From positions 11,013-75,012 of the forward strand of contig JAGRAN010000032.1 in assembly GCA_020434585.1 (NCBI GenBank): 64,000 bases of DNA. The letters are read 5' to 3'. The notes under the pieces are model-generated. The model was not told the DNA's origin, did not search any database, and saw only the letters and a list, made by a program, of their open reading frames with translations. This document shows, piece by piece, positions 2,638 to 52,546 of the stretch (its first letter is position 1; every line of letters starts with the position of its first letter). The position numbers and the translations under genes are program-made. The DNA comes from Bdellovibrionales bacterium (GTDB lineage: Bacteria > Bdellovibrionota_C > UBA2361 > SZUA-149 > JAGRAN01).

Positions 2638-4356
2638 CTATGACAACAGACCTCGCAATAAAGCGTTTGCGCCGACTCTAAGGTTCCGGAGTGAGTATCC
2701 GCCTTCCTGCACAATAAGCAGCGGTACGCCAACGGACGAGAACATTTGGCCTATGCTGCGCATTCCGTCACGGCTAATGTCGAAAGTGCCGGTCGGGTCG
2801 CCGCTCATGATGTCGTAGCCGAGCGACAAAACAAAATACTTAGGCTTAAATTTAGCGATGGAACGCAGCGCAGCCTGGAGCGTTTTTAAATAAAGCGCGT
2901 CGTCCACGGGAGGAAACAACGGGTAGTTCCGGTTGTATCCTTGACCTGGGCCTTTTCCAGTTTCGTCCTCAAAGCCGCAAAAATAAGGATAGGCTTGCCT
3001 CGGGTTTCCATGAATCGAAACTACGTAAACATCTTTGCGTTCGTAGAAAATATTTTGAGAGCCGTTGCCGTGATGGTAGTCGATATCAAGCAGTGCAACC
3101 TTGGCGTCCTTAGACAGATACTCTGCAGCTACTGCGGCGTTGTTGAAGTAGCAAAATCCACCAAATGCGCTCTTTTCTGCATGGTGACCTGGTGGTCGGC
3201 ATAATACATAGCAGCGCTGTGAGCCGTTCTTGATTAAGGATGCTCCAGTTAGTGCAGCGTCTACTGCGAGTCGCGCAGCTTTGTAGGCATTTCGAGTTAC
3301 AGGCGTAAAGGTGTCCAGACAGAAATATCCAGCTCGCATTTCCCAAGTGCGCGGAAGCCGGCGCTGCTGACGCAGAGGAAATACATTTGGGTAAACGAGT
3401 CGATCCGGAGAGAGTTCGTCCTGCGCTTCTCGAAGGAAGTGCACCAGCTTTTTATCGTGAATCGCAGTTATGTATTTTTCGCCAAAGTGACGCAGCGGAT
3501 GCTCCTTGTACGAGATATCGTGCAGCCCGCGCAAGATGGCACTAACTCTTGCAGGCCTCTCAACATACCCGCGCTCTTTTAAGTGATGTATCTGATGAGA
3601 ATCACCGGAGCAAACGATGTCAATTGAGAGCCGAGTGGGGGCTTTTGCCTTCCGATTTTTTAACCCGGAATATAGCGGGGGCCGAAGCTGAATAGGGTCG
3701 TCTTTCACAGACTTGACGATCGCTCGAAGTGTTGGGTCGCTGCTGGGCATCTGTGCCTTTGCGCCAAGTATGCAAGAGATCGTCGCCTGCACTTCCGCCC
3801 GAGACGGGTTTTTACCTTGGTCGAGCGAATCGTAAACCAAAAACGTAACGTAGCCTTGGTTTCCCTTATGCGCTTTTTTTTCGTAAGCGGTGTTAACTAT
3901 CGGACGCGCGCCAAAGCGTTCATAAAATTCCAGCCGCCGCTTGTTCATGGCGAGACGCTCGGGTTCTTTTAATAGCTCCGGAGCGTCAGGTGGCACGTCC
4001 ATGAAGATGCCGATACAAGGTTTGCGCCGAAAGTGTTCGCGAGTGGCTTCGTAAACCGCCGCGCCGTAACCCCGCTTCTTCCTAGCAGGGTCAGCAGCAA
4101 GGTAATCGAGGTAGGCGGCTTTGGCCTCCGGAAAGTAAAACGATAGACTGAATCCTAGTATTCGTTCTTTTGGCCCTTCTGCTACGAGCAGTACTGGTTC
4201 GAAGGTCTTAGAGTCCGGTTCTCGAAACAAGTCGGCAATCTTGGCGGCGTACTCGGGATAGTAGGAAAACGCACGACGGTAAATGCGAAGAACCGCTGCG
4301 AACAGCTTTTGTTCTTCGCGACGAATTGGGCTGTAAATTTGGCGAATTCTAAACAT
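2638..4356 (-). CDS. Fusion protein: N-terminal GNAT-like acetyltransferase + C-terminal histone-deacetylase/acetoin-utilization (HDAC/AcuC/AphA) family deacetylase
   Basis: The C-terminal half carries canonical HDAC-family motifs (GFCYFNNAAVAA, DIDYHHGNGSQ, SLGYD). The N-terminal ~170 aa contain a GNAT motif-A-like RGYGAAVY / acetyl-CoA-binding pattern. Confidence 0.7.
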   Translation of the reverse strand: MFRIRQIYSPIRREEQKLFAAVLRIYRRAFSYYPEYAAKIADLFREPDSKTFEPVLLVAEGPKERILGFSLSFYFPEAKAAYLDYLAADPARKKRGYGAAVYEATREHFRRKPCIGIFMDVPPDAPELLKEPERLAMNKRRLEFYERFGARPIVNTAYEKKAHKGNQGYVTFLVYDSLDQGKNPSRAEVQATISCILGAKAQMPSSDPTLRAIVKSVKDDPIQLRPPLYSGLKNRKAKAPTRLSIDIVCSGDSHQIHHLKERGYVERPARVSAILRGLHDISYKEHPLRHFGEKYITAIHDKKLVHFLREAQDELSPDRLVYPNVFPLRQQRRLPRTWEMRAGYFCLDTFTPVTRNAYKAARLAVDAALTGASLIKNGSQRCYVLCRPPGHHAEKSAFGGFCYFNNAAVAAEYLSKDAKVALLDIDYHHGNGSQNIFYERKDVYVVSIHGNPRQAYPYFCGFEDETGKGPGQGYNRNYPLFPPVDDALYLKTLQAALRSIAKFKPKYFVLSLGYDIMSGDPTGTFDISRDGMRSIGQMFSSVGVPLLIVQEGGYSLRNLRVGANALLRGLLS

Positions 4357-4557
4357 GAATGTCAGCCGCGGCTAAACACGGTTTTACGATTACAACAGTT
4401 GTATAAAGTTCCAAGCTTCGGTGCAAGGAGATCGACTGAAAGGAGTCCAAATGGTTGGCGGACCGGGAGAGTGTTTTTGCTAATCTAACCTCACTTGGTT
4501 TGTCCGCCATAAAGCGCTGCAGTCCGGTTTCCCGAACTGCAGCGGCTTCATTCTGAC

Positions 4558-5067
4558 TTACTTATCCGGCTTCTCTCCGACCTCGGGAACTTCGGCGTCG
4601 AAGCGGCTGCGCGCAGCTTCATTCTCGGCCTGGTTCTCGAGCTGCATGCGCCGCGCCTTCTCCTCGAGGGATTCGGTCTCGACGCTGCGATGCTCGATCG
4701 AATCGGCGTTCTCGATCAGACTGCGAAGTCGCTGTTCGCGCTCTTCGACGATCGGGCTCGAGATGTCCGTCTGCCGACGAGTGACGATCTCCCACTGGGT
4801 GAGCATGATGGCGCCCAGCCACAGCAGCAGCATCGCTACGACGCTGACGATCGGGAACCCAGGTACCTTTACCGCCGCTTTCGCGCCGGAGTCGTCATCG
4901 GCCAAGCGCTCCTGGGCACGCAGCGCGTCGTAGCGCCGCTTGAAGTACCCGAAGATGCGTACCTTGACGAAGTACCAAGTGACGATCACCAGGACTGCGA
5001 ACAGTCCGATCTTGATCCAGGAGTAGGTGAGGAACTCCAGGATCGACGAATCGTTCATCATGTTCAT
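4558..5067 (-). CDS. Hypothetical membrane protein (single or double TM, acidic coiled tail), co-oriented downstream of the SPFH gene
   Basis: Two hydrophobic helices (IGLFAVLVIVTWYF; IVSVVAMLLLWLGAIML) followed by a charged Glu/Arg-rich C-terminus. GC-rich island. Confidence 0.4.
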   Translation of the reverse strand: MNMMNDSSILEFLTYSWIKIGLFAVLVIVTWYFVKVRIFGYFKRRYDALRAQERLADDDSGAKAAVKVPGFPIVSVVAMLLLWLGAIMLTQWEIVTRRQTDISSPIVEEREQRLRSLIENADSIEHRSVETESLEEKARRMQLENQAENEAARSRFDAEVPEVGEKPDK

Positions 5068-5103
5068 GATGCTCCCTTCTGATGTTGCGAAGACAGGCGG
5101 GCC

Positions 5104-6063
5104 TTACTTGCCCTCCTGCTGCTGGGTGGCGGCGGGCTCCGGCTGGAACGCGTTGTTCGTGATGCCCATCAGCATCGCCGGGTTCTTAAGCGCTTCGTCG
5201 TCGATGATGAACACCTTGTTCGGCGAGGCCGCGAGGGTCTCCATCACCTTGATCATGCGCTGCGTGACGAACGCGGGAGTGACTCCCTCAGCCAGCTTCT
5301 GGTTGACCAGAACCTGGGTTTCGGCCTCGACGAGGTCGACCTCCTGCTGCTTACGCGCGACCTCTAGGGCGGCGTCGGCCTCCGTCAGCTTCACGAGCTT
5401 GTCGGCCTCGGCTTCCTTGATCTCGATCTCGCGCTTCTTCGCCGCCTCCTGGGCATCGATGATGACCTGGGGCGGGTCGACATTCGCCAGAGCGAGCACG
5501 GTCGCATCGATCGGCGTCTCGGCGAGCTTCGCCTGTACCGCTGCGTGAATCTCTTGCGAGACCGCGTCGAGGTTCGAAAGCACGTGCTCGATCGTGTAGT
5601 GCGTGATCACGTGTCGCGCCGTGGTCCGCACGATCTGCTGGGCGTAGGTCTCGTACACCTTCTCGAACGAGATCTGGTGAATGCGGGCGTCGTTGGTCGA
5701 AGCCGCCTCCAGTCGATCGAAGATGATGTTGACCCGTTCCTCCGCCCCCGAGATGGAGAACGTTCCGCGCACGTCGAAGGCCAGCTTGAGCTGATCCTCC
5801 GGCATGAACACGGTCATCGGCTCTTCCACCATGTTGTCAGACACGGCGGTGAGAACGAGGTGCGCCGGCGCCATCGGGTTGACCGGCAGACGGAAGGTGG
5901 ACGGCTGTTTAAGCTCGTCCTGAAAACCTTGAGAGGTTTTCACCTTGCCGACGTGCGCGGTCGGGACCTCGACCTGCTTGCCGCAGCCGGTCAGGGCGAT
6001 CGCACCTACCAGGGCACACAGGACGGCGCTGCCACGAACGAATGAAGAACGCTTGTTTCGCAT
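5104..6063 (-). CDS. SPFH/band-7 (stomatin/prohibitin/HflK-like) lipoprotein
   Basis: Start refined to the in-frame ATG at 6063 (MRNKRSS..), giving a signal peptide plus lipobox LTGCG. The central SPFH-like region is followed by an Ala/Glu-rich coiled coil (EIEIKEAEADKLVKLTEADAALEVARKQQE). GC-rich. Confidence 0.65.
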   Translation of the reverse strand: MRNKRSSFVRGSAVLCALVGAIALTGCGKQVEVPTAHVGKVKTSQGFQDELKQPSTFRLPVNPMAPAHLVLTAVSDNMVEEPMTVFMPEDQLKLAFDVRGTFSISGAEERVNIIFDRLEAASTNDARIHQISFEKVYETYAQQIVRTTARHVITHYTIEHVLSNLDAVSQEIHAAVQAKLAETPIDATVLALANVDPPQVIIDAQEAAKKREIEIKEAEADKLVKLTEADAALEVARKQQEVDLVEAETQVLVNQKLAEGVTPAFVTQRMIKVMETLAASPNKVFIIDDEALKNPAMLMGITNNAFQPEPAATQQQEGK

Positions 6064-37556: not shown

Positions 37557-38421
37557 GGCCTAGTACCTTCGCTTTGATCGAGGAGAAAACTTTAATTGTT
37601 TCAGCGACTCGCGGCCCAGGAAAGGACGAGAGATCTCTGCGCAGCAAATAGACGTGATTATTGCGTACTGCCTTTAAAAAAGACAATTTGCTCCAGGCGG
37701 ATGCTAACTGTTCGCGATGACCCGTATCGGCTGATAGAGAGATGTCAATGATAACGTCCGGATTTAAAGCTGCAAGACCCTCAGCTGATAGGGAACTGTA
37801 GCCTCTTACCGCGGCTGCGGCGTTGCTTAGCCGAAGCTTGTGCAGCACATCGTCGTAGAAAGTTTCTGTTCCGGCCGCATATGCAGACGAAACAGCCGGA
37901 CCCGCATTTGAGTCTACTACGACCAGAGCTTTGTAGTCTTCTGCATTCAGTTGATTTTGCAGTAAGTCAGAAATCTCAGATTCAATTCTTTGAACGAGTA
38001 ATCTCGCTCGGTCTGAGCGGTCTATGCTTTTGCCGATAGCGGCAATAGAGTGAAAAATCTCGTCGATCGACTCGTTAGCGACGGAGAGAGTTCGGATATT
38101 CAGAGCGTCGAGTTTGCTTTTTAACCCCGCGTGACTATCAAGCATGATTACCAAATCTGGTTTGAGCGATAGTAGCTTTTCAAGGCTCGTATCAAATAGG
38201 CCGCCTAGGTGAGGCAGCTTGGACGCCTCGGGCGGATATTTGCAGTAGGTAGTTACGGCGATCAGTTTAGATTCTGCGCCAAGAGCGAACACCGTTTCAG
38301 TTATGGTTGGCGCGAGGGAAATAATTCGTTGCGGCACCGTGTCCGCTGGGAGGGCCTCGGCGCTGCCCCATGAGCTTAGGGTCAGCACCGCGGCGGTAAC
38401 TAACTTTAAGAGCATTCTCAA
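37540..38421 (-). CDS. btuF: Periplasmic cobalamin/siderophore-binding protein (BtuF-like)
   Basis: Signal peptide, then RIISLAPTITETVFALGAESKLIAVTTYCKYP, typical of BtuF / class III substrate-binding proteins. Confidence 0.75.
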   Translation of the reverse strand: MRMLLKLVTAAVLTLSSWGSAEALPADTVPQRIISLAPTITETVFALGAESKLIAVTTYCKYPPEASKLPHLGGLFDTSLEKLLSLKPDLVIMLDSHAGLKSKLDALNIRTLSVANESIDEIFHSIAAIGKSIDRSDRARLLVQRIESEISDLLQNQLNAEDYKALVVVDSNAGPAVSSAYAAGTETFYDDVLHKLRLSNAAAAVRGYSSLSAEGLAALNPDVIIDISLSADTGHREQLASAWSKLSFLKAVRNNHVYLLRRDLSSFPGPRVAETIKVFSSIKAKVLGHAVNN

Positions 38422-40253
38422 AGCGCAACCTCTACGCCTCCAAATATTTCAAATCCCGGCGTGCTGTAGCCGTTAATCTCCTCGTAATCTTCGTCGAACA
38501 AATTCTCGACCCTAAGAAACGGGGTGACCTTCTCAAGCAGCGTGTACTGAAGAGACGCGTCGACACGCGTATAGTCATCCATATCAGAACCGTCAGAGTC
38601 GATGCGATCCCTAACGACAAGCAAGGTTATGGAGCCGGTTAGGTTCTCGACAGGCTCGAAAAACAAGTCGAGCGACCCTCTGTGTTTTGGTCTCCTGGCT
38701 AGCTGGGTTCCGGTTTCATCATTTTCAGCATCCGTATACGTGTATTGGGCCGAACCGCTGAGTTGTTCGCAAAGCTTTGCATTCAGCGTAAATTCCACTC
38801 CATGTATGCTCGCGCTGTCGATGTTTTCAGCCAAAAAGGTTATAGAATCAAAGGTGATTAAATCGTCAATCTCACTGCGGAAGTAAGTCACATCCGCCGT
38901 AATATCCTCAAACAAAGTAACGCCTAAGCCAACATCCCAGCCGAGACTGGTTTCCGGATCAAGATCCGGATTGCCAAAATTTGGAAAATACAATTCGTTA
39001 AACGACGGCGCCTTAAAACCACTGCCAACGCTGCCGTGCATCCTCATTCCCGTGTCTGGCGGGCGAACTGACATTGTCGCGCGGTAGGTTGTCTCGCTGC
39101 CGAAATCGGAATCATCGTCGTAGCGTACGCCCCCGGTAAAGGTTGCCCATGGTGTCCAGCGCAATTGGTCTTCAAGGAAAAACGAATTCACTTGCCGTGA
39201 TTTGTTGAAGTTGCCGATATTTTCTCCCTTACGGTGTTCGTTGGTGTAGCCGAGAGTAATCGTATTCTCTTCTATCGGTTCTATATCAACGGCCGCCGTA
39301 GCACTGGTTGTTGTCTGTTTGATGTCGAAATTGTTGAATTCGGAGTCGGGGTCTCGGCCTTCAAGGTCCTCGTCGTAAATACCGAGTTCGACTCGAGGTA
39401 CGATATACTCTCCTAAAGACTTCGATGCAGTAAGTGAGCCGGTAAGCACTTCGCGTTTTTGGGTGTAGTTAAGTGCATCTACAGGGCCTACGCCGAATTC
39501 GAAATCATCGAGTTCAGTATCGCCTTTAATAAATCGAAAAGTTGCATCGGCGCGACCGTCTCCTAAAAAGTTTAAGCCGGTTCTAGTCGAGGCGGTAATG
39601 TTCTCATACTCGTCTCGTTCAGTATTGCCGTTTCTTTCGCTTGCTGCGGAAACGCCGTCTGTGTCGAAGTAGGTTATGCTATTGGCAGTATCAAAAAGCT
39701 CGTTGCCGTATCCAGCGTGCGCCCGATATTCATAGGTGGAGTGATTACCTGCTCCGGCTGATACAGCGGCGCTGGGTCCCTCGGCTGCCTTTCGAGTGAT
39801 TATGTTGATCACTCCGCCAATCGCATCGGAGCCATAAAGTACGCTTTGCGGACCACGTACAACTTCGATACGTTCAATGTTCGCGGTGTTAAGGTCAGCA
39901 AAATCGTAGCCGCCAACGTTCGCGTCGTTAGCTTTGACCCCGTCAATTAATACCAACGTCTGGTCGGTGTCAGCTCCGCGAATATAAACTCCGCTGACTC
40001 TACCTCTGCCACCGGACTGCGTAACGTCGACTCCGGGGAGCGAACGCAGCATTTCTATTACGCTGGTGCGGCGTGTAGCTTCAATTTGTTCGCGCGTAAT
40101 TAAACTTACACTGCTGCCGGTTTCTTCCAGTGTGCTGGGTGTAAGGTTCGCCGAAACTACAATCTCAGGTGTTTCTTCAGCAGCTGCACAAGTTGGCAGA
40201 GCGATTGCAATGCAGCAAGCAGCTGCACAAAAAGTATTTTTATATTGTTTCAT
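38418..40253 (-). CDS. btuB: TonB-dependent outer-membrane receptor (BtuB-like)
   Basis: Signal peptide, TonB box (ETPEIVVSAN) and plug domain (RSLPGVDVTQSGGRGRVSGVYIRGADTDQTLVLIDGV...IERIEVVRGPQSVLYGSDAIGGVINIIT). It sits directly downstream of a cobalamin riboswitch. Confidence 0.85.
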   Translation of the reverse strand: MKQYKNTFCAAACCIAIALPTCAAAEETPEIVVSANLTPSTLEETGSSVSLITREQIEATRRTSVIEMLRSLPGVDVTQSGGRGRVSGVYIRGADTDQTLVLIDGVKANDANVGGYDFADLNTANIERIEVVRGPQSVLYGSDAIGGVINIITRKAAEGPSAAVSAGAGNHSTYEYRAHAGYGNELFDTANSITYFDTDGVSAASERNGNTERDEYENITASTRTGLNFLGDGRADATFRFIKGDTELDDFEFGVGPVDALNYTQKREVLTGSLTASKSLGEYIVPRVELGIYDEDLEGRDPDSEFNNFDIKQTTTSATAAVDIEPIEENTITLGYTNEHRKGENIGNFNKSRQVNSFFLEDQLRWTPWATFTGGVRYDDDSDFGSETTYRATMSVRPPDTGMRMHGSVGSGFKAPSFNELYFPNFGNPDLDPETSLGWDVGLGVTLFEDITADVTYFRSEIDDLITFDSITFLAENIDSASIHGVEFTLNAKLCEQLSGSAQYTYTDAENDETGTQLARRPKHRGSLDLFFEPVENLTGSITLLVVRDRIDSDGSDMDDYTRVDASLQYTLLEKVTPFLRVENLFDEDYEEINGYSTPGFEIFGGVEVAL

Positions 40254-40264
40254 GAGTGCCTCGA

Positions 40265-40450
40265 TCCCTTCCCGCGAAGAGAGTTAGCGTTCGGTGCTGA
40301 TTGGCTCAGGTCTCCTGGCTTCTCGTCATCCTCGCACCCGCCTTCCCGAGCAGAAGCTCAGTGGCATGATTAGGCGCTCGTCAGAGTTACAGTTGCGCGG
40401 CAGCGTGGGATTTGCACCCAACTTCCCTTGTTCCAACGCAGTTCTCGCCG
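40265..40450 (-). ncRNA. Cobalamin (B12) riboswitch in the btuB 5' leader
   Basis: The reverse complement reads ...AAGGGAAGUUGGGUGCAAAUCCCACGCUGCCGCGCAACUGUAA...AUGCCACUGAGCUUCUGCUCGGGAAGGCGGGUG...AAGCCAGGAGACCUGAGCC, ending at the btuB AUG. It contains the conserved GGGAA-GGUG-AAUCC-CCGC-ACUGU core, GCCACUG...GGGAAGGC and the B12 box. Confidence 0.8.
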
Positions 40451-40539
40451 AACTTGGTTAGTATTGGTTCGAGAATTACCGCGACTTCAGCCAATATTCA
40501 AGAGAATAGCTAATATGGCTGAAAAACGGTCCAGAGAAC

Positions 40540-41022
40540 TTAAAAAACCAGGTTGTTGGCGATGGCGGCTTCGCTTTTTAGACCATCAGGTGAATGCTTT
40601 GGGTGCTCGTGGTGATGATGGCCTGAACATGCTTTAGATTTGCAGCAAGTCATGCTGTGTAAATTCTTAATGTGTCCGATTATCAATAATGCCCCGCCAA
40701 AAGTAGTTAGCACTGCCTCCATTGAAAAGAGGTTATCGTCATGTCGTCCGGGAGCGAGCAGCGCGCCAACGACAAGCATTAGTCCTAAGCCAGCATAAAT
40801 AACAACGTCTTTTCTTCGATGCTGTTGGTAGCCTCGAGCAAACGCCAGTATTGTTACGAAGAGGAGCAGAACAGCGAATGCAATATGCACGGGAGTTTCC
40901 CCGGCGGTTACGGGGTCTAGTATTGGAAAAAACAACACCGCAATTGGCAGCAGCGCGCAATGCACTGCGCATAATGCCGAGAGAGCAATTCCCAGTTTGT
41001 CGATAATATGTGTATGGACCAT
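40540..41022 (-). CDS. MerC-like membrane protein with a His/Cys-rich metal-binding C-terminus
   Basis: Four TM helices. The first has LCAVHCALLP (MerC-type Cys pair). C-terminal tail is CCKSKACSGHHHHEHPKH. Confidence 0.45.
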   Translation of the reverse strand: MVHTHIIDKLGIALSALCAVHCALLPIAVLFFPILDPVTAGETPVHIAFAVLLLFVTILAFARGYQQHRRKDVVIYAGLGLMLVVGALLAPGRHDDNLFSMEAVLTTFGGALLIIGHIKNLHSMTCCKSKACSGHHHHEHPKHSPDGLKSEAAIANNLVF

Positions 41023-41115: not shown

Positions 41116-42132
41116 TTAGGCTTTCCAGTCGGGATAGCGCTCGCAGCCGAAATAATATTCTGGATAAGCTTTGCGCTGAACAAATTCTGGAAGCAGACCC
41201 CACAGCCAATGTTCCTTAAGCTTAGCGTCTATCTCCTGTTCCATCGCGCTGCGGTCATAACTGAAGTCAATCTGCACATTGGTATCGACTCGGATAATGT
41301 TTAGTCGATCAGTGCCGCCAGTGCCCTTGCCGTCGGCGCAGCACACTACGAAATTGCCTTCAGGTGACCAGGAGACAAATCGATCGCACCCACTGTTTTT
41401 CGTAATGCGTTTTTCGCTCATTCCGTCACGGCTCATAACCCATACATCGGCATCGGCGCTTCCGTCGGAGCTCGAATTCTCGTCGGCTTCAGTTACAAAA
41501 GCGATTTGCGTCCCGTCGGGCGAATAGGCTGGATGAAAATCTCGAGCGGGGTGGCTTGTCACACGACGCTCTTTCCCCGTGCTTAAATCCAACTCATAAA
41601 TATCTTCGTTGCCTTCACGTGTAGAAGAGTAAAGCATATATCCGCCGCAGGGAGACCACGAAGGTCCAGCTTCCACGCCCGTATTCGAAGTCACGCGCTC
41701 AGGGCTTCCGCTGCCGTCAGCATTAACTACATATATGTCGATGTTTTCACCGTTATCGTAGTTAGCAGCGCACGCAATTTGCTTCCCATCCGGAGACCAG
41801 CAAGGTTCAGCATGAAACTTGCTTGAGTTGGTTAGTTGGCGTTGATTGCTGCCGTCTGCTCCCATCGTCCAGAGTTCGGGGATCCCGCTGCGATTAGAAA
41901 CGAAGACAATTTTGCTGCCGTCAGGTGACCATTTCGGAGCATCGTTCCAAGCGCCTCCGGTAGTAAGCTGGTGAAGTTCTTTTGACTCAATATTCAGGGT
42001 CCAAATATCGAAGTCTGTCTGCTTGCCCGATGCAAATACCAGCGTGCCCTTTGGTCTCATGTGTCCTCCCAGAACGTAAACGGTCCATCCAACTATCGGA
42101 AGCGATGACTTGGTACTTAAGTATTCTCCCAC
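41116..42132 (-). CDS. TolB-like PD40 beta-propeller repeat protein
   Basis: Repeated PD40/WD40-like units (WSPDGSKIVFVSNRSG, WSPDGKQIACAAN, YSPDGTQIAFVTE, WSPEGNFVVCCADG). Probable true start at an internal Met near 42060. Confidence 0.7.
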   Translation of the reverse strand: MGEYLSTKSSLPIVGWTVYVLGGHMRPKGTLVFASGKQTDFDIWTLNIESKELHQLTTGGAWNDAPKWSPDGSKIVFVSNRSGIPELWTMGADGSNQRQLTNSSKFHAEPCWSPDGKQIACAANYDNGENIDIYVVNADGSGSPERVTSNTGVEAGPSWSPCGGYMLYSSTREGNEDIYELDLSTGKERRVTSHPARDFHPAYSPDGTQIAFVTEADENSSSDGSADADVWVMSRDGMSEKRITKNSGCDRFVSWSPEGNFVVCCADGKGTGGTDRLNIIRVDTNVQIDFSYDRSAMEQEIDAKLKEHWLWGLLPEFVQRKAYPEYYFGCERYPDWKA

Positions 42133-42179
42133 AAAAGCTAATTCGCAAGAGCTTAAGCGGTTTTCGAATAAACCTGAAG

Positions 42180-43229
42180 CTATTCCTGTTTCTTTTTGGG
42201 TTTGCCAGCAGAGGGTTCGCCAATCGAACCGAGGTGGCAGAACCGAGTGCCAGGAATCGCAACCGGATAAGCGGCTTTGCCGATCACAATACCCTCCTCT
42301 GGTACGTAGTATTCCTGAAGTTTACGGTCAAATGCGTCTCGGGTGATAGCGACGAGGTGCTTCTTCTGAAGCTTTTCGCCCAATTTGAAAGTCGTTTCGA
42401 GGATGCCGCCGCCAGTTGTGCGAAGCCATTTGGAGCTGTGGCAAACCACGGGTTTGGAGCTGCTCTCAATCTTTCCCTTAACCATTCCCAACAGAATCAT
42501 AATGTTTTGAATCGCTGCTTCTCCCTCGATTACCATTTTCCCTTGGAAAACGCTGGGATTGCCGGCCTCGATTGTTATCGCCGGAATTCCGCGGCGCCGT
42601 GCGGCGTTCCTTAAAGTGCCGCCTCCGTGTTTCGGGGAATGTAAGATGATGGCCGGGTTTGCACAGACAGCCAGCTCGCGCGTTTTGTCGTTCAGCCAGT
42701 CCGTGCGGACGTAAAAGGTATTCAAACGGCCTTCGCTGGCTGTGTGCAGATCAATTAGGTAGTCACAGGCGGGCAAAAAGGAAGAGGTAAATGCTCTAGC
42801 ATACTGCTCGGCGGGTTGGCCGTCCGGCTTGCCCGGGAAGACGGTATTCAGGTCAAGGCCGTCAGTGAAGTACCTCGATCCAGCATTAAAACCAGGGATG
42901 TTGACAATCGGGACGCAGAGTAGAGTTCCGCTCATGCTACTCAAGTCAACATTACGCAAGACGTGATGAATAATTCGAATACCGTTTAACTCGTTCCCAT
43001 GAACTGCCGCCGTAATGCCGAGTACGGGTCCGTCCTTGTGCCCCCGGGCGACGATGAACGGGACGCTCATACGGTTACCGGTTGCTCGCTCGTACATTGG
43101 TACATAAACGTCTGAACGTTCGCCTTTTGGAAACTTGGCAACGTTGATCGTTTGGTGGCGGCCCGTGCGCGGGCGAATTTCACAAATGTCTATTGTGGGT
43201 AGTTCTGTGGGTAGATCTTGGCTACTCAA
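42180..43229 (-). CDS. Succinylglutamate desuccinylase / aspartoacylase (AstE-AspA) family zinc deacylase
   Basis: Motifs ITAAVHGNELNGI and DLHTASEG (Zn ligands His/Glu...His), typical of the AstE/AspA M14-like family. Its start overlaps the upstream gene by 8 bp. Confidence 0.7.
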   Translation of the reverse strand: MSSQDLPTELPTIDICEIRPRTGRHQTINVAKFPKGERSDVYVPMYERATGNRMSVPFIVARGHKDGPVLGITAAVHGNELNGIRIIHHVLRNVDLSSMSGTLLCVPIVNIPGFNAGSRYFTDGLDLNTVFPGKPDGQPAEQYARAFTSSFLPACDYLIDLHTASEGRLNTFYVRTDWLNDKTRELAVCANPAIILHSPKHGGGTLRNAARRRGIPAITIEAGNPSVFQGKMVIEGEAAIQNIMILLGMVKGKIESSSKPVVCHSSKWLRTTGGGILETTFKLGEKLQKKHLVAITRDAFDRKLQEYYVPEEGIVIGKAAYPVAIPGTRFCHLGSIGEPSAGKPKKKQE

Positions 43230-44658
43230 CTCTCAGCTCCTCAAGCAGCGGGGGGTCATCGTTCAGCGACATAAATGCTTTGGTCCTAAATTTTCCTTTA
43301 GATGTGAAAAGGGAGCAAGCCATCTTATCAACGGCACAAACGGCCATGACCGTCTGAACGTAGCCCATAATTAAGTCGTCGAGTCCGATCCCCAGGGAGT
43401 TAAAGTCCTTGCGATCCATCATAATCAAACGGCTGCTTTCAGTGTCCCAAGAGTCTGTGCCGGTCTTTATCGAAAGGTTAGTGCCCAGCATGTCCCAAGG
43501 AGCGGTGTCGCCGTTCAGATCGTTTCTTAACGGCGTTCTAGCTCGACGGCCGTAAACTGCAATTGGCCGAAAGCTTTGTTCTCCTCGATAAACCATCATT
43601 CTTAAATCAGCGACGTACAGCTCGTTGCGCTTATTGGGGACCGTGCCGACGTGATAGAATTTTCCAACGGTACCGTCAGAACTCCATTCGTAGTTGCCAA
43701 TTAAGCTCTGAACGATAAAGCAGTTATAGGGATAATCCCGTGCCATGAACTCTTCCAGCTGATTTGAGTCAGTGACGATGAAGACCCCTTGGCCTGCGTT
43801 GCTGTATGGTATCTTAATGACAGCGTGTCCGCCGAACTTTTGCACAACGAATGGAATTTCTTCCTTTTGGACGTCGCGCACGGTTTCGGGAATATGGATC
43901 GTAAGACCGCTTCCGCCGTACTGCGCGTTAAAGATTTCATAAGCCATGGCTGCGACCATCTTATTGCGCCCACCAGCTATGCAGGCGACAACCGGATTGA
44001 GTAGGGCAGTTTTGCTGTAAATCGGTATCCGGTTCCAAGGTTTCTGAGTGACGTAGCGAAAAGCAGCTTTAATCGGTGTCCATTCACCTGAGGGCTTTCT
44101 TACATACATCACTCCGTCGTCGTATTTAACTGGAGGGTCGTTATCTGAGTTGTAAAATGGGGCCAGCAAGACATCGCATTGGAAATGGTCGGCCATTGCT
44201 GCAGCGTAGCCGGAGTTCTCCATGTAGTTCTTATCGTAAACCACGGCCAGTTCGCCGTCTTTAATCTTGCTTGCTCTGAGCAGCGGAGCAAATGCTTCGG
44301 AAATTAATGTTCCGTAGCCGCCGTCTTCCTCATGATCGGAAAACAGCGGCATAGATTTTTGTCCTGATGGACAGGAGTTTGTTTCGATAACAACCATGCG
44401 TCTCAAACCGGCGGCAGTCGTTACCGAAAATAAATCCGCTCCAGCCCAGCGGAGGAATTTTGGCTCGTAATAGAGAATCTCCTCCAGTGCGTCCCGGTCG
44501 ACTCTGGGATTAAGGTGACAGAAACGCGTGGCTAGTCGGTCTGGACCCAAGCTCAGAAAAGACTTAACCATGGGGTGAATCGTGGCGTTTAGGACGCGGG
44601 TGTAATAATGGCGAACTGGTTCAAACGAACCAGGGGCAATTACTTCAACATCCTTCAT
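43222..44658 (-). CDS. ATP-grasp-like amidoligase, apparently circularly permuted
   Basis: MVVIETNSCPSG resembles the ATP-grasp Mg-binding ExN motif (LEVNSSPG), but it sits near the N-terminus (~residue 90) rather than the C-terminus. A Gly-rich HAVIKIPYSNAGQGVFIV block sits mid-protein. 478 aa. Confidence 0.4.
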   Translation of the reverse strand: MKDVEVIAPGSFEPVRHYYTRVLNATIHPMVKSFLSLGPDRLATRFCHLNPRVDRDALEEILYYEPKFLRWAGADLFSVTTAAGLRRMVVIETNSCPSGQKSMPLFSDHEEDGGYGTLISEAFAPLLRASKIKDGELAVVYDKNYMENSGYAAAMADHFQCDVLLAPFYNSDNDPPVKYDDGVMYVRKPSGEWTPIKAAFRYVTQKPWNRIPIYSKTALLNPVVACIAGGRNKMVAAMAYEIFNAQYGGSGLTIHIPETVRDVQKEEIPFVVQKFGGHAVIKIPYSNAGQGVFIVTDSNQLEEFMARDYPYNCFIVQSLIGNYEWSSDGTVGKFYHVGTVPNKRNELYVADLRMMVYRGEQSFRPIAVYGRRARTPLRNDLNGDTAPWDMLGTNLSIKTGTDSWDTESSRLIMMDRKDFNSLGIGLDDLIMGYVQTVMAVCAVDKMACSLFTSKGKFRTKAFMSLNDDPPLLEELRVE

Positions 44659-45205: not shown

Positions 45206-46018
45206 TTACTGATCGGAATCAGTCTCGGGCTCGTCTATCCAGCTAAATGCTGTGAGAACAACTCTAGTGCCTGCAGCCTTTCCGGGGACCTCGTGAACGT
45301 CCTTATCGAATTTTGAGATAAAGTCACGCGCCTCCCGGTGCAGCTTTTTCCCTCGCTCCAGAAGCCATTTGCGGATCTTCGGCACGTCTTCCTTGAAAAC
45401 ATTGTCGTATTCAGTTCGAATGTGCAGATTGACAGCCTCACCGGGAGATTCGATATTCTCCTGAGAGCAAGTTGCCAAAGTTTCGATGTTGCGCGCCAGC
45501 AAATCGTGGGCTCTAGAGGAGTCTTTGCTATAAGACTGATAGTCGCTTACCAACCGAACTCCGCGCGGTGTGCGCTCCACAGCTCCTAATCTTTCAAGTT
45601 CAAATAATATAGTACCGGGCTTAAGCGTAGAATTCACCGTGGAAACTAGCTTTGCAAACTCGTTGTTCTCTTTCGAAATTGAGAGGACTCTCGGTTTGCC
45701 GTCTTGAGTAGTAAACTGCTCCGACTGCTCCCACTGTCCCATCACTTGCATGGATACGTTCGAAGTGGGGCGTTCTTCAGTTCTTTCCGGGTCGAGCAAT
45801 CGCGCGACATCCTTTCTATGAACGCCAGTCATCACGTTAATGCGCGCGATGGTTGCACGTTTGCCTGCTTTGGCAATTTCGGTTTGAGCTTCTTCTACAA
45901 GCAGCTGTTTCAAGACTTCCACCATTGATTTAAGTGTGACTCCTCGTCGCAGCCAATAGCGAGCGATCGGGCGCAGCACCTTACTTAAGTTATGGATGGA
46001 TTTCTCGTCAGCTTGCAT
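45206..46018 (-). CDS. Hypothetical HTH-like protein, paralog A of a 270-aa family
   Basis: Clear paralog of 51731..52546: ARYWLRRGV/ARFCLRHGI, IARINVMTGVHRKDVARLL/VSRISIMTGIHRKEVRSLM, ELERLGAVERTP/ELERAGIVEREN, LHIRTEYDNVFKEDVPKIRKWLLERG/LHLRTEYDNIAVERIPEIKTWLLREG. The MTG[VI]HRK segment looks like a helix-turn-helix. Confidence 0.5.
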   Translation of the reverse strand: MQADEKSIHNLSKVLRPIARYWLRRGVTLKSMVEVLKQLLVEEAQTEIAKAGKRATIARINVMTGVHRKDVARLLDPERTEERPTSNVSMQVMGQWEQSEQFTTQDGKPRVLSISKENNEFAKLVSTVNSTLKPGTILFELERLGAVERTPRGVRLVSDYQSYSKDSSRAHDLLARNIETLATCSQENIESPGEAVNLHIRTEYDNVFKEDVPKIRKWLLERGKKLHREARDFISKFDKDVHEVPGKAAGTRVVLTAFSWIDEPETDSDQ

Positions 46019-46234: not shown

Positions 46235-47113
46235 CTAGGCGTAAGCTTCGGCAGCAGCCAGCTGGCTCAGGCTGATTCTGCCCTGGGTAAATGTGCAGAA
46301 TTCAACGCAGCGGTTCATCAAGGCGGCTTTTAATGCTGTCTGCAGAGAGCCAAGAGATTGTTTGTGGTCCGAAGCTTCGACGCGTTTAGACAGTACGTCT
46401 AGGTCCTGGATCACACCCATCAGTGTTTGAAGCTGAGTGCGCTGTGCGCTGTCGAAGGCAGGAGTGTATGGCAAGGCATTCTCGAAAGCGGAGCATAGGT
46501 AGCGATAGTGCTTAAATGCGATTCGGGCTTTGTGAATTGTCGCCGTGTCCGACGCTTCACATTCTGACAGAGCTTGTTTAGCTTCGTGTTCAGCAATTCG
46601 AACGAAGTCACACAAAATTGACGATAAGAAAGCGTCATCGATACTGGCTAGCTGCTCGGCCTGCTGCTCAAGCCGCCTTTGATATCTTTTTGTTTCTTTG
46701 AGGGTGTGTGTTCTTAAGTGCTTTTTCGCCTTCTTACTTAGCTTGTTTTCTTTTGACTCAAGCTCTTCATAAAATGCTGTCTCTCTGGCCGCTTCGCCCA
46801 TCAATAAACCAACCGTGCTTTGCATCACGTGAATATCTCGCAAGGAGCTCAGGCATTTCAGGCGTTCGCGAACGATATTCTCAACCCGCGCAGCCGACTT
46901 TTTGTCGCGACAAATTCGCTCGAGAATGCTGCAGAGTGCCAGCAATTTTCGGCTGCTGATGCGGAGCTTGTGGACGGAGTTTTCTGTTAGATTCTTTTTG
47001 CAGCGATTGAAGGCACGGTTGTGTTGCTTGAACGACTTCTTGAGTTCTTCAAGCAGGTAGGAAGCGATATCAGTTTTGACTGGCTGCCCCAAAATGATGC
47101 ACCTCAGATTCAA
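46235..47113 (-). CDS. CHAD-domain protein (tentative)
   Basis: Two helical segments with conserved His followed by a basic periodic pattern (VHKLRISSRKLLALCSIL; IHKARIAFKHYRYLCSAFEN), typical of CHAD domains. Confidence 0.45.
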   Translation of the reverse strand: MNLRCIILGQPVKTDIASYLLEELKKSFKQHNRAFNRCKKNLTENSVHKLRISSRKLLALCSILERICRDKKSAARVENIVRERLKCLSSLRDIHVMQSTVGLLMGEAARETAFYEELESKENKLSKKAKKHLRTHTLKETKRYQRRLEQQAEQLASIDDAFLSSILCDFVRIAEHEAKQALSECEASDTATIHKARIAFKHYRYLCSAFENALPYTPAFDSAQRTQLQTLMGVIQDLDVLSKRVEASDHKQSLGSLQTALKAALMNRCVEFCTFTQGRISLSQLAAAEAYA

Positions 47114-51341: not shown

Positions 51342-51734
51342 TCAGCGGGCAGTTCGCGGGCGTCGATCAGTTCTTTCGTCGATCATTCTGGCGTCAATTC
51401 TACGCTGCTGCGAATCGTATTCGAAGATGATTTGCACGAGGACAGTATTGTTGCCCAAGCGCATTAATGTGTAAGTAGCGTCAATATCTGCTCGGCGAAA
51501 CCGTAGCAATATATCGTTAAGCAGTCTGACAGGAACCCTAATTGAAAAGCTTCCGGCTTCGTCGCTCACGTCGCTGTCACCAGTTTCTTCAACGATGACC
51601 TCTACACCTTCGAGTGGTTCACCGTTCTTGCTTGCGATGCTGCCCTCGATGGTGATGCCGCCAGTTCCTTCCGAGCCTCCGCCACAGGCACATAGTACCA
51701 TGATGCAAAACAAAGACGTTACTAATGCTTTCAT
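51342..51734 (-). CDS. Small lipoprotein with a carboxypeptidase-regulatory-like (CarbopepD_reg / transthyretin-like) beta-sandwich
   Basis: Lipobox LCACGGG, then IEGSIASKNGEPLEGVEVIVEETGDS. Its start overlaps the upstream paralog-B gene by 4 bp. Confidence 0.4.
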   Translation of the reverse strand: MKALVTSLFCIMVLCACGGGSEGTGGITIEGSIASKNGEPLEGVEVIVEETGDSDVSDEAGSFSIRVPVRLLNDILLRFRRADIDATYTLMRLGNNTVLVQIIFEYDSQQRRIDARMIDERTDRRPRTAR

Positions 51735-52546
51735 TTTGTTTCAGCCTTATCCTGTGGTTCGCATACGAAACTAAACGCAGTTGCGGCGACTTTACCGCCG
51801 CCCTTAAGGTCCTTTAGCTCCCGGTTAATGTCTTTATCGTGGGACGCGAGGTATTCCCTCAGTCGTTTCTGAAAGACTGAACCCTCTCGGAGCAGCCAGG
51901 TTTTTATTTCGGGAATTCGTTCTACGGCGATATTGTCGTATTCCGTTCTGAGGTGGAGGTGGGGAACTGACTCTGAGCCGAAAATGTTTTCCTCTACTGC
52001 GCGAGTAATATTCTCAGTATCGCTGGCCAGCATGCGAAAACCTTCGTGGTAGTCGCTGCGTGGGATGTACATCTTCTCTTTAAGAGAAACATTTTCATTT
52101 TCGCGTTCGACTATTCCGGCTCGTTCAAGCTCGGCGAGAACTGTGTATGGATTCACATCTTTACTTACTTGAAAAACGAGCGAATGAAATTCACTGTCTT
52201 CCCCGGTGCAGTTTAAAGGGCGAGGGCCGCGTTTTTGGTCCTGGTATTTCGGGTCTTCAAGCCATTGGCCGATAACGCGAGTGAGTAAGCTGCTCTTTGA
52301 GTCCGGCTGATGTTCCTGCATTAAGCTTCGCACTTCTTTGCGGTGAATTCCGGTCATAATTGAAATTCTGCTGACACTGGGTTTTGCGTCGGCTTGGTGC
52401 AGCTCGTCCTCGGCGAGCTTCACAAGTGCTTGCTTCAGTGCGCCAACCACGCGTTGAATCCCAATGCCGTGGCGCAGACAAAAGCGGGCCACTGGCCTCA
52501 CGAGGAGCGACAGACAGTCATTTAGAATTTCTTCGGAGCGCGCCAT
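51731..52546 (-). CDS. Hypothetical HTH-like protein, paralog B of the 270-aa family
   Basis: See 45206..46018; alignable along the whole length. Confidence 0.5.
   Translation of the reverse strand: MARSEEILNDCLSLLVRPVARFCLRHGIGIQRVVGALKQALVKLAEDELHQADAKPSVSRISIMTGIHRKEVRSLMQEHQPDSKSSLLTRVIGQWLEDPKYQDQKRGPRPLNCTGEDSEFHSLVFQVSKDVNPYTVLAELERAGIVERENENVSLKEKMYIPRSDYHEGFRMLASDTENITRAVEENIFGSESVPHLHLRTEYDNIAVERIPEIKTWLLREGSVFQKRLREYLASHDKDINRELKDLKGGGKVAATAFSFVCEPQDKAETK

Follow-up and report, generated by a model that had tools for sequence, protein, structure and literature searches.

Among the closest described counterparts of the gene considered here are ATP-grasp ligases that work beside a hydrolase. 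In the enzymology of N-acetylaspartate (NAA) and N-acetylaspartylglutamate (NAAG), an N-acyl amino acid or dipeptide is both made and hydrolysed, and RimK or mammalian RIMKLA and RIMKLB, taken together with aspartoacylase, place the same enzyme classes side by side as the loci of the present family, namely one or more ligases, an AstE/AspA-family hydrolase and, in some of those loci, a GNAT protein. Ligase-plus-peptidase modules are reportedly a known theme, treated by Iyer and co-workers in 2009. Circular permutation of the ATP-grasp fold has also been described before, eukaryotic glutathione synthetase (GS) being the classic case in the account of Polekhina 1999 given by PMC2213659, and the CP_ATPgrasp_1/2 families have been found to associate with Alpha-E and transglutaminase-like genes (PMC3597751). 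The subject of this work is a 64,000-nt window of a Bdellovibrionales metagenome-assembled genome (MAG), to which all coordinates refer unless a homologue locus (L-number) is named, and in it a gene for a predicted ligase of 478 amino acids (aa), hereafter X, whose stop codon overlaps the start of an AstE/AspA-like hydrolase gene. The fold and the logic of a ligase beside an amidohydrolase are already known; the X family appears to be the new part.

The X family and its permuted ATP-grasp fold

The original prediction placed X, the hydrolase gene and a PD40 propeller gene one after another on the same strand, and all three were found at the stated positions, on the minus strand (Table 1). They are real genes, X having more than 3,700 matches in a word-indexed homologue search. 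The further proposal that X is a circularly permuted ATP-grasp protein, based on the sequence VVIETNSCPSG near its N-terminus, was borne out. In the predicted model X has a three-domain ATP-grasp fold, and the protein is circularly permuted, with the Mg-binding D...ExN segment lying N-terminal to the pre-ATP-grasp and central domains. The conserved catalytic set is that of ATP-grasp enzymes, but the D...ExN pair comes first, the N-terminal hairpin of X being formed by the segment with which a canonical ATP-grasp protein ends.

The inverted order was seen in a profile-profile comparison (hhalign) with the canonical RimK-like proteins encoded beside X homologues, where two matches were obtained, X 146-432 with RimK 13-251 (E = 3.2e-5) and X 24-130 with RimK 156-288 (E = 9.4e-4). 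The first match pairs GRNK with sRDK, KIPYSNAGQGV with vKL..G.GV, IVQSLI with lQEFI, DLRMMV with DiRvfV and GTNLS with RSNi..GG, and the second pairs WAGADL...VVIETNSCPSG with vAGVDl...lVvEVNsSPG, the hairpin itself falling on RimK-like positions 236-265. When the X profile was un-permuted by placing alignment columns 55-130 after columns 131-415, its score against RimK rose from 45.1 to 58.3 (E from 1.9e-5 to 2.2e-7) and the coverage of RimK extended to 13-271, while the score stayed at 45 in shuffled, reversed and wrong-segment controls. A result that weighs against the permutation is that the same operation brought no gain with a GshB-like profile. Un-permuted single-sequence constructs of X gave no Pfam matches, the sequence being too divergent.

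The motifs of the fold are strongly retained. In an alignment of 32 diverse members with 26-47% identity to X, the residues D75 and E92 of the hairpin, G229 and K233 at the start of ATP-grasp proper, K282 and G289 of the central domain, and Q317, D351, R353, R371, T393 and N394 of the C-terminal domain were all at least 94% conserved, the last six with eukaryotic members included. Residues E92, N94, S95, P97, S98 and G99 were invariant across 30 homologues, and about 120 columns were invariant among 30 X-family sequences. The set of ATP and Mg2+ motifs (Lys with glycine-rich loop, hinge Q/E, D-x-R, the N..GG-type Asn and D...E-x-N) is complete in the family, the catalytic residues being kept down to 26% identity and in eukaryotes. 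Strands are predicted at residues 71-81 and 86-94, and homology would place this hairpin (71-94) at the Mg site.

The best structural matches with Foldseek were near full-length (408-455 columns) and comprised 3n6x (Mfla_0391), which we take to be a representative of the Pfam CP_ATPgrasp family, and eukaryotic GS (2hgs, 1m0w, 5oes and 3kal; E = 1e-8 to 1e-6); matches to RimK and LysX covered about 260-286 columns. The topology of X is that of eukaryotic GS and CP_ATPgrasp, and probably also of 3k1t, the 'putative gamma-glutamylcysteine synthetase GshA' of Methylobacillus flagellatus. Eukaryotic GS is a small-peptide ligase of the same topology class, but it is only 10-14% identical to X (TM about 0.4), with no Pfam match and with other partners. 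X and 3k1t are only 11% identical, no sequence or profile link and no match to a GshA model joined them, and 3k1t lay outside the Foldseek top 50. The models PF08886 and TIGR02049, which presumably describe GshA of the A. ferrooxidans type (the 3k1t family), were not matched by X, provided that the libraries contain them.

The hidden Markov models (HMMs) of the related families went unmatched. For CP_ATPgrasp_1/2 (PF04174, PF14403) no match was found at E up to 10 among 30 members, or at E up to 1 among 10 divergent ones. The RimK models PF08443 and TIGR00768 gave no match for X, and 4 of 30 members matched at E = 0.018 or worse. X likewise had no GSP_synth match, which sets it apart from glutathionylspermidine synthetase/amidase (GspS, 2io7) and the YgiC acid-amine ligase (7uka). 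Sequence and profile searches of the PDB returned noise only, and X with 40 family members gave nothing usable against Pfam and NCBIfam down to E = 10. No confident match of X to a fold other than ATP-grasp was obtained.

The family is large and is named by no curated library tried. Its named members are all 'hypothetical', with the exception of one 'ATP-grasp domain-containing protein' in Portibacter lacus. Confirmed X loci were found in at least 591 species genomes in a scan of species-representative genomes, an exhaustive search (E up to 1e-3) gave 923 clusters at 50% identity, and identities of about 57-60% to X occur across Bacteroidota, Myxococcota, Dadabacteria and others. Eukaryotic members share 40-53% identity with X, and none of the catalytic residues is lost in them. 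In the fungus Podila verticillata the homologue was found in three assemblies, on a 1.27-Mb contig with eukaryotic genes on either side, and its 611 codons are spread over 3,062 bp, which indicates introns. Two acidic ribosomal stalk proteins (Ribosomal_60s) are encoded next to it (L091 13399-17290), probably by coincidence. Trichinella and Trichuris both carry a homologue whose model runs together with that of CTF18, the gene upstream, and Cyanidium caldarium carries one as well; among long members of the family no domain fusions were found besides the merged nematode model. No paper on the X family, on 3k1t, or on bacterial ATP-grasp/AstE or ATP-grasp/MATCAP clusters was found in the searchable literature. 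An origin of X in a defence system, phage or plasmid was considered and rejected, as PADLOC defence models gave no match for X or for the AstE-like, PD40 and MerC proteins, no phage copies were seen, and there was one chromid-like replicon only.

A zinc hydrolase partner and a candidate product

The second gene is, on sequence grounds, a bona fide AstE/AspA-family zinc hydrolase, as had been foreseen, matching Pfam AstE_AspA_cat over positions 2-190 of 192 (125.4 bits against a gathering threshold of 25; E = 2.6e-36). A GAGGAG Shine-Dalgarno sequence lies upstream of its TTG start, and the 8-nt overlap of the two genes implies translational coupling. The best PDB relative of the protein, and its nearest characterised one, is DoeB (N-alpha-acetyl-L-2,4-diaminobutyrate deacetylase, 6twl; E = 2.5e-20 over residues 54-318), with which it shares the HGxE and DxH zinc motifs and the catalytic Glu; it differs in that the Arg of N-R-x-FPG is replaced and no ectoine genes lie nearby. 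The NCBIfam equivalog cut-offs lie far above its scores, which are 81, 27 and 24 bits for DoeB, aspartoacylase and AstE, against 402.7, 180 and 306, respectively. None of 58 X-linked orthologues departs from the zinc ligands H77, E80 and H162 or from the catalytic E221. The D-L-N-R motif, by contrast, has lost its Arg in the window, where Thr129 stands in its place; among the orthologues the position is His in 46 cases, Arg in nine and Asn in two. DoeB and the RimK-linked AstE paralogues of the same loci retain this Arg. The X-linked hydrolases thus form a subfamily of their own, with an invariant active site but, unlike the RimK-linked paralogues, a replaced D-L-N-R Arg. Second RimK-like and AstE-like pairs, with the DLNR Arg kept, were observed within 10 kb of the X cluster (L041 15435-17500, L043 12163-14000 and L077 9121-11000), which suggests two parallel ligase/deacylase modules per genome.

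The pairing of X with the hydrolase is conserved in relatives and far outside the lineage of the window. In a set of 55 non-redundant loci that extend 3 kb or more to both sides of X, an AstE-like gene was found within 3 kb of X in 41 and a GshB-like ATP-grasp gene nearby in 32, the pairing being seen in Bacteroidota, Myxococcota, Bdellovibrionota, Vulcanimicrobiota, Burkholderiales and Rhodothermales. Saprospiraceae have the order X-GshB-AstE, whereas in Myxococcota X faces a GshB-AstE pair that converges on it. MAGs of Bdellovibrionota, Vulcanimicrobiota and Burkholderiales show X-AstE-RimK(-GshB), and the cultured Chondrinema litorale has GNAT-AstE/AspA-X. Junctions within the clusters are mostly 4-nt overlaps, and the X/AstE junction itself has 4-nt ATGA/GTGA overlaps or 1-2-nt gaps in nine loci (L005, L008, L011, L042, L043, L078, L088, L089 and L090). 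These partners, an AstE/AspA hydrolase with GshB- and RimK-like ligases, differ from those of CP_ATPgrasp, and no Alpha-E or transglutaminase gene was found near X among the Pfam-annotated genes of L001-L007 and L088-L090.

An unbiased census of accessory genes was taken within 6 kb of X at 87 loci. An MscS channel was present in 18 loci, a SpeA-like arginine decarboxylase (ADC) in 12, a SET domain in 11 (three lineages, with two further matches to a PAD-SET query), a GNAT-CN-hydrolase in 10, an agmatinase in nine, a 2-oxoglutarate (2OG)-Fe(II) oxygenase in six and MATCAP in two. Genes for the conversion of Arg to putrescine recur near X through non-orthologous enzymes and in several arrangements: ADC and agmatinase genes are downstream, inserted or divergent in Saprospiraceae and one Flavobacteriales MAG, and Rhodothermales locus L078 has a complete aguA-aguB-speA-deoxyhypusine-synthase-like operon divergent from X-AstE-GshB. 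The link is seen again in another Bdellovibrionales MAG (L089), where a PAD_porph-SET fusion follows X-AstE-RimK. No conserved small open reading frame (ORF) that could encode a carrier or precursor was found beside X, the recurrent short clusters being antisense shadow ORFs.

From the chemistry of ATP-grasp enzymes we infer that X would bind MgATP between its central and C-terminal sheets through K282, the glycine-rich loop and Q317, with Mg2+ held by D75, E92 and N94 of the transplanted hairpin. X would then phosphorylate a carboxylate of its substrate to an acyl-phosphate, stabilised by R371 and N394, and attack by an amine would give an amide; the coupled zinc hydrolase, with E221 as general base, would cleave that amide or a close N-acyl bond. 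Canonical ligases (GshB-like, RimK-like), one or two of them in most other lineages, may extend the product. The latter would most likely be a small peptide-like metabolite of Glu/Asp type, possibly N-acylated or linked to agmatine or putrescine, built and degraded on demand in the manner of NAA and NAAG, N-acetylglutaminylglutamine amide (NAGGN), or glutathionylspermidine with its amidase. The amidase of GspS is a fused CHAP domain; the AstE-like amidase is a separate zinc hydrolase, and the link of X to polyamines is one of neighbourhood only.

That the pair acts on a small molecule rather than a protein tag is the reading that we prefer, with middling confidence. It is favoured on four counts. 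The structures closest to that of X are those of small-molecule ligases of peptide or acid-amine type (3k1t, LysX/ArgX, YgiC, GspS and eukaryotic GS). DoeB, the nearest relative of the hydrolase, has a free N-acetyl amino acid as its substrate. The additional ligases point to a short peptide that is assembled step by step, and the GNAT, MscS and polyamine genes fit a compound resembling an osmolyte, NAAG, NAGGN or glutathionylspermidine. Several observations weigh against it. The accessory genes are present in a minority of loci, and their signal may be partly inherited synteny because many such loci are related Saprospiraceae; no second ligase was found in the 64-kb window; and synthesis and hydrolysis encoded in one operon need regulation, yet none was found, the window and seven diverse loci showing no riboswitch or other RNA at the X cluster, where the only match was the cobalamin riboswitch of the next operon. 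Moreover, SET and MATCAP neighbours are typical protein-modifying enzymes, and the high conservation of X (about 57% across phyla and 53% to a fungus) would also fit the recognition of a conserved macromolecule.

The last two points lead to protein or peptide tagging, the reading that the original prediction had inferred. Here X, with the RimK- and GshB-like ligases, would attach amino acids to some conserved protein, at its C-terminal tail or an acidic side chain, and two metallopeptidases, the AstE-like one of carboxypeptidase type and the MATCAP-like one, would erase them, as with RimK on S6 or TTL/TTLL with CCP/MATCAP on tubulin. The 2OG-oxygenase neighbours would also suit such a system. 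Nevertheless, we consider it rather unlikely, as the structural matches are best to small-molecule ligases and not to TTL or RimK, the hydrolase is nearest to DoeB and not to protein carboxypeptidases, MATCAP is rare in the census, no candidate target lies beside X, and the polyamine, MscS and GNAT neighbours would be left unexplained.

An alternative glutathione pathway is less probable still, and we give it only a small chance. X would there be a gamma-glutamyl-cysteine-type ligase like the 3k1t 'GshA', to which a GshB-like enzyme would add the third residue, and both the structural match to 3k1t and the GshB-like neighbour agree with this. The function of 3k1t is itself only 'putative', however, and X matched no NCBIfam or Pfam model, those for GshA included if the libraries contain them. 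The GshB-like neighbours score about 190 bits against cut-offs of 272-299, more exactly 96-186 bits for TIGR01380 and 107-195 bits for NF003573, with cut-offs of 299 and 272, respectively; that of Portibacter reaches only 96-107 bits, and the model that comes nearest is that of a provisional subfamily, NF009110, with scores of 385, 266 and 87 bits against 408. The most conserved partner, the deacylase, would have no role in such a pathway, and the window has X and the AstE-like gene with no GshB-like gene in its 64 kb. Eukaryotic hosts of X should already own canonical glutamate-cysteine ligase and GS, and X would be redundant there as a glutathione enzyme.

The propeller and the rest of the window

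The third gene was confirmed as PD40 on the same strand (Pfam 3.7e-38; 129 bits in four stretches of repeats), and its description as a TolB-like propeller of periplasmic type was not upheld. The ATG at 42060 is preceded by a GGGAGGA Shine-Dalgarno sequence, codon-like conservation among relatives begins exactly there, and the gene calls in L001 and L088 are of 314 aa, so that the protein begins MRPKGTLVF... and lacks a signal peptide. The TolB model TIGR02800 gave 196 bits against 343 and matched only propeller positions 248-386, with no hydrophobic N-terminus, and the best PDB match is the stand-alone Atu1656 (2ojh). The 119-nt gap between the AstE-like and propeller genes holds the motif GAGAATACTYAAG, which lies some 70 nt ahead of the propeller start. 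The motif is common to L001 and L088 while the flanking sequence is not conserved, and it may be a promoter or operator of the propeller gene. PD40 was found in 3 of the 87 loci, all of one clade, and the relatives with PD40 and MerC beside X all have 77% identity or more (L001-L003 and L088), L001 and L088 having the same propeller/MerC order; Bdellovibrionota relatives at 61-62% identity have RimK-like genes in the propeller position. The propeller is a clade-specific neighbour outside the conserved module, and it was rejected as a periplasmic partner for its lack of a signal peptide and of the TolB N-domain and for its limited distribution. The proposed three-gene operon, in which a periplasmic TolB-like propeller would work with the ligase/deacylase pair, kept its strand, its gene order (retained in relatives of 77-84% identity) and the absence of a predicted terminator between the AstE-like and propeller genes, but with the corrected start, the missing TolB N-terminal domain, the stand-alone best match, the possibly promoter-like motif in the gap and the replacement of PD40 by RimK-like genes in other Bdellovibrionota it is highly improbable, and as a periplasmic operon essentially excluded.

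Table 1. Positions of the X cluster, its motifs and neighbouring features in the 64,000-nt window
Feature	Position	Strand	Evidence or remark
X, predicted permuted ATP-grasp carboxylate-amine ligase, 478 aa	43222..44658	-	Deposited as 'hypothetical protein' KDD66_04160
N-terminal beta-hairpin WAGADLFSVTTAAGLRRMVVIETNSCPSG, residues 71-99; predicted Mg2+ ligands D75, E92, N94	44362..44448	-	RimK-like alignment
VVIETNSCPSG, residues 89-99	44362-44394	-	
GRNK, residues 230-233, start of ATP-grasp proper	43960..43971	-	hhalign columns; corresponds to sRDK of RimK
KIPYSNAGQGV, residues 282-292, ATP-binding Lys and glycine-rich loop, central domain	43783..43815	-	Corresponds to vKL..tkG.GV of RimK-like
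C-terminal-domain motifs in canonical order: Q317-S-L hinge, D351-L-R353, R371, G392-T-N394-L-S	43471..43710	-	Correspond to QEFI, DiRvfV, RSNi..GG of RimK-like
8-nt overlap of X TAG and AstE-like TTG, GTTGAGTAG	43222..43229	-	Sequence
AstE/AspA-family (DoeB-like) Zn2+ amidohydrolase, X-linked subfamily, 349 aa	42180..43229	-	Pfam AstE_AspA_cat
AstE-propeller gap	42061-42179		Conserved motif
PD40 beta-propeller, 314 aa, corrected start	41116..42060 (listed ORF 41116-42132)	-	PD40 repeats and start codon
Promoter-like site ahead of MerC gene	41084-41056		
MerC-family membrane protein	40540..41022	-	Pfam MerC 1e-23; context only
Cobalamin riboswitch	40308-40428	-	RF00174, 84 bits, E = 3e-19
TonB-dependent receptor	38418-40253		
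Periplasmic binding protein	37540-38421		
ABC ATPase	36786-37556		
FecCD permease	35795-36784		
Flp/Fap-pilin-like ORF, 91 aa	44794-45069	-	Pfam Flp_Fap E = 0.013 (below threshold)
DUF6502, first copy	45206-46018	-	
CHAD gene	46235-47113		
Arg-rich ORF, 531 aa	47198-48793	-	
Multi-pass membrane-protein ORF, 427 aa	47344-48627		No Pfam match in L001
DUF6502, second copy	51731-52546	-	

Beyond the MerC gene, the cobalamin riboswitch starts the next unit and is followed immediately by the genes of the TonB-dependent receptor, the periplasmic binding protein, the ABC ATPase and the FecCD permease; the unit looks like a B12-regulated uptake operon of btuB/btuFCD type. In L001 a Memo/radical-SAM/AMMECR1 trio (14057-16628) lies between MerC and the TonB receptor, and the corresponding interval of the window (40253-40540) is without it. 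On the other side, 136 nt upstream of X, the 91-aa ORF has a pilin-like N-terminus (KG/ATMLEYVV...); it is absent there in the 84%-identity L001, where the CHAD gene abuts X. The two DUF6502 genes are paralogues (phmmer 2e-52 between them), and by comparison with L001 the first appears to have been inserted, along with the pilin-like ORF, between the CHAD gene and X. The 531-aa ORF overlaps the 427-aa membrane-protein ORF in another frame and is probably spurious, because gene calls in relatives (L001 7504-8787) pick out the membrane protein. The local G+C content is 57-61% at positions 1-2000, 4001-6000 and 30001-32000, compared with about 50% elsewhere in the window, in which no rRNA or tRNA was found.

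Significance of the X family

The size and conservation of the family, together with its eukaryotic members, make it of interest beyond the present window. Being conserved and widespread, X is a target for the discovery of a new protein modification or of a new metabolite, which might be an osmolyte, a NAAG-like peptide or a conjugate of a thiol or polyamine, and Portibacter, Chondrinema and Podila are cultured hosts in which genetics could be pursued. X would add a permuted ATP-grasp lineage beside eukaryotic GS and CP_ATPgrasp, and it bears on the origin of the permutation. We suggest, tentatively and with some doubt, that X makes an undescribed amide, or an undescribed tag on a conserved protein, for which the zinc amidase serves as the dedicated eraser; the ligase itself would be conserved, with about 50-60% identity, in organisms as far apart as predatory and marine bacteria, fungi, trichinellid nematodes and red algae. 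If this is true, X would be a new and ancient ligase family at the junction of glutamate/aspartate with agmatine/putrescine metabolism, and its product, far from being a secondary product of a single lineage, would be a widely distributed metabolite or modification that has so far been missed.

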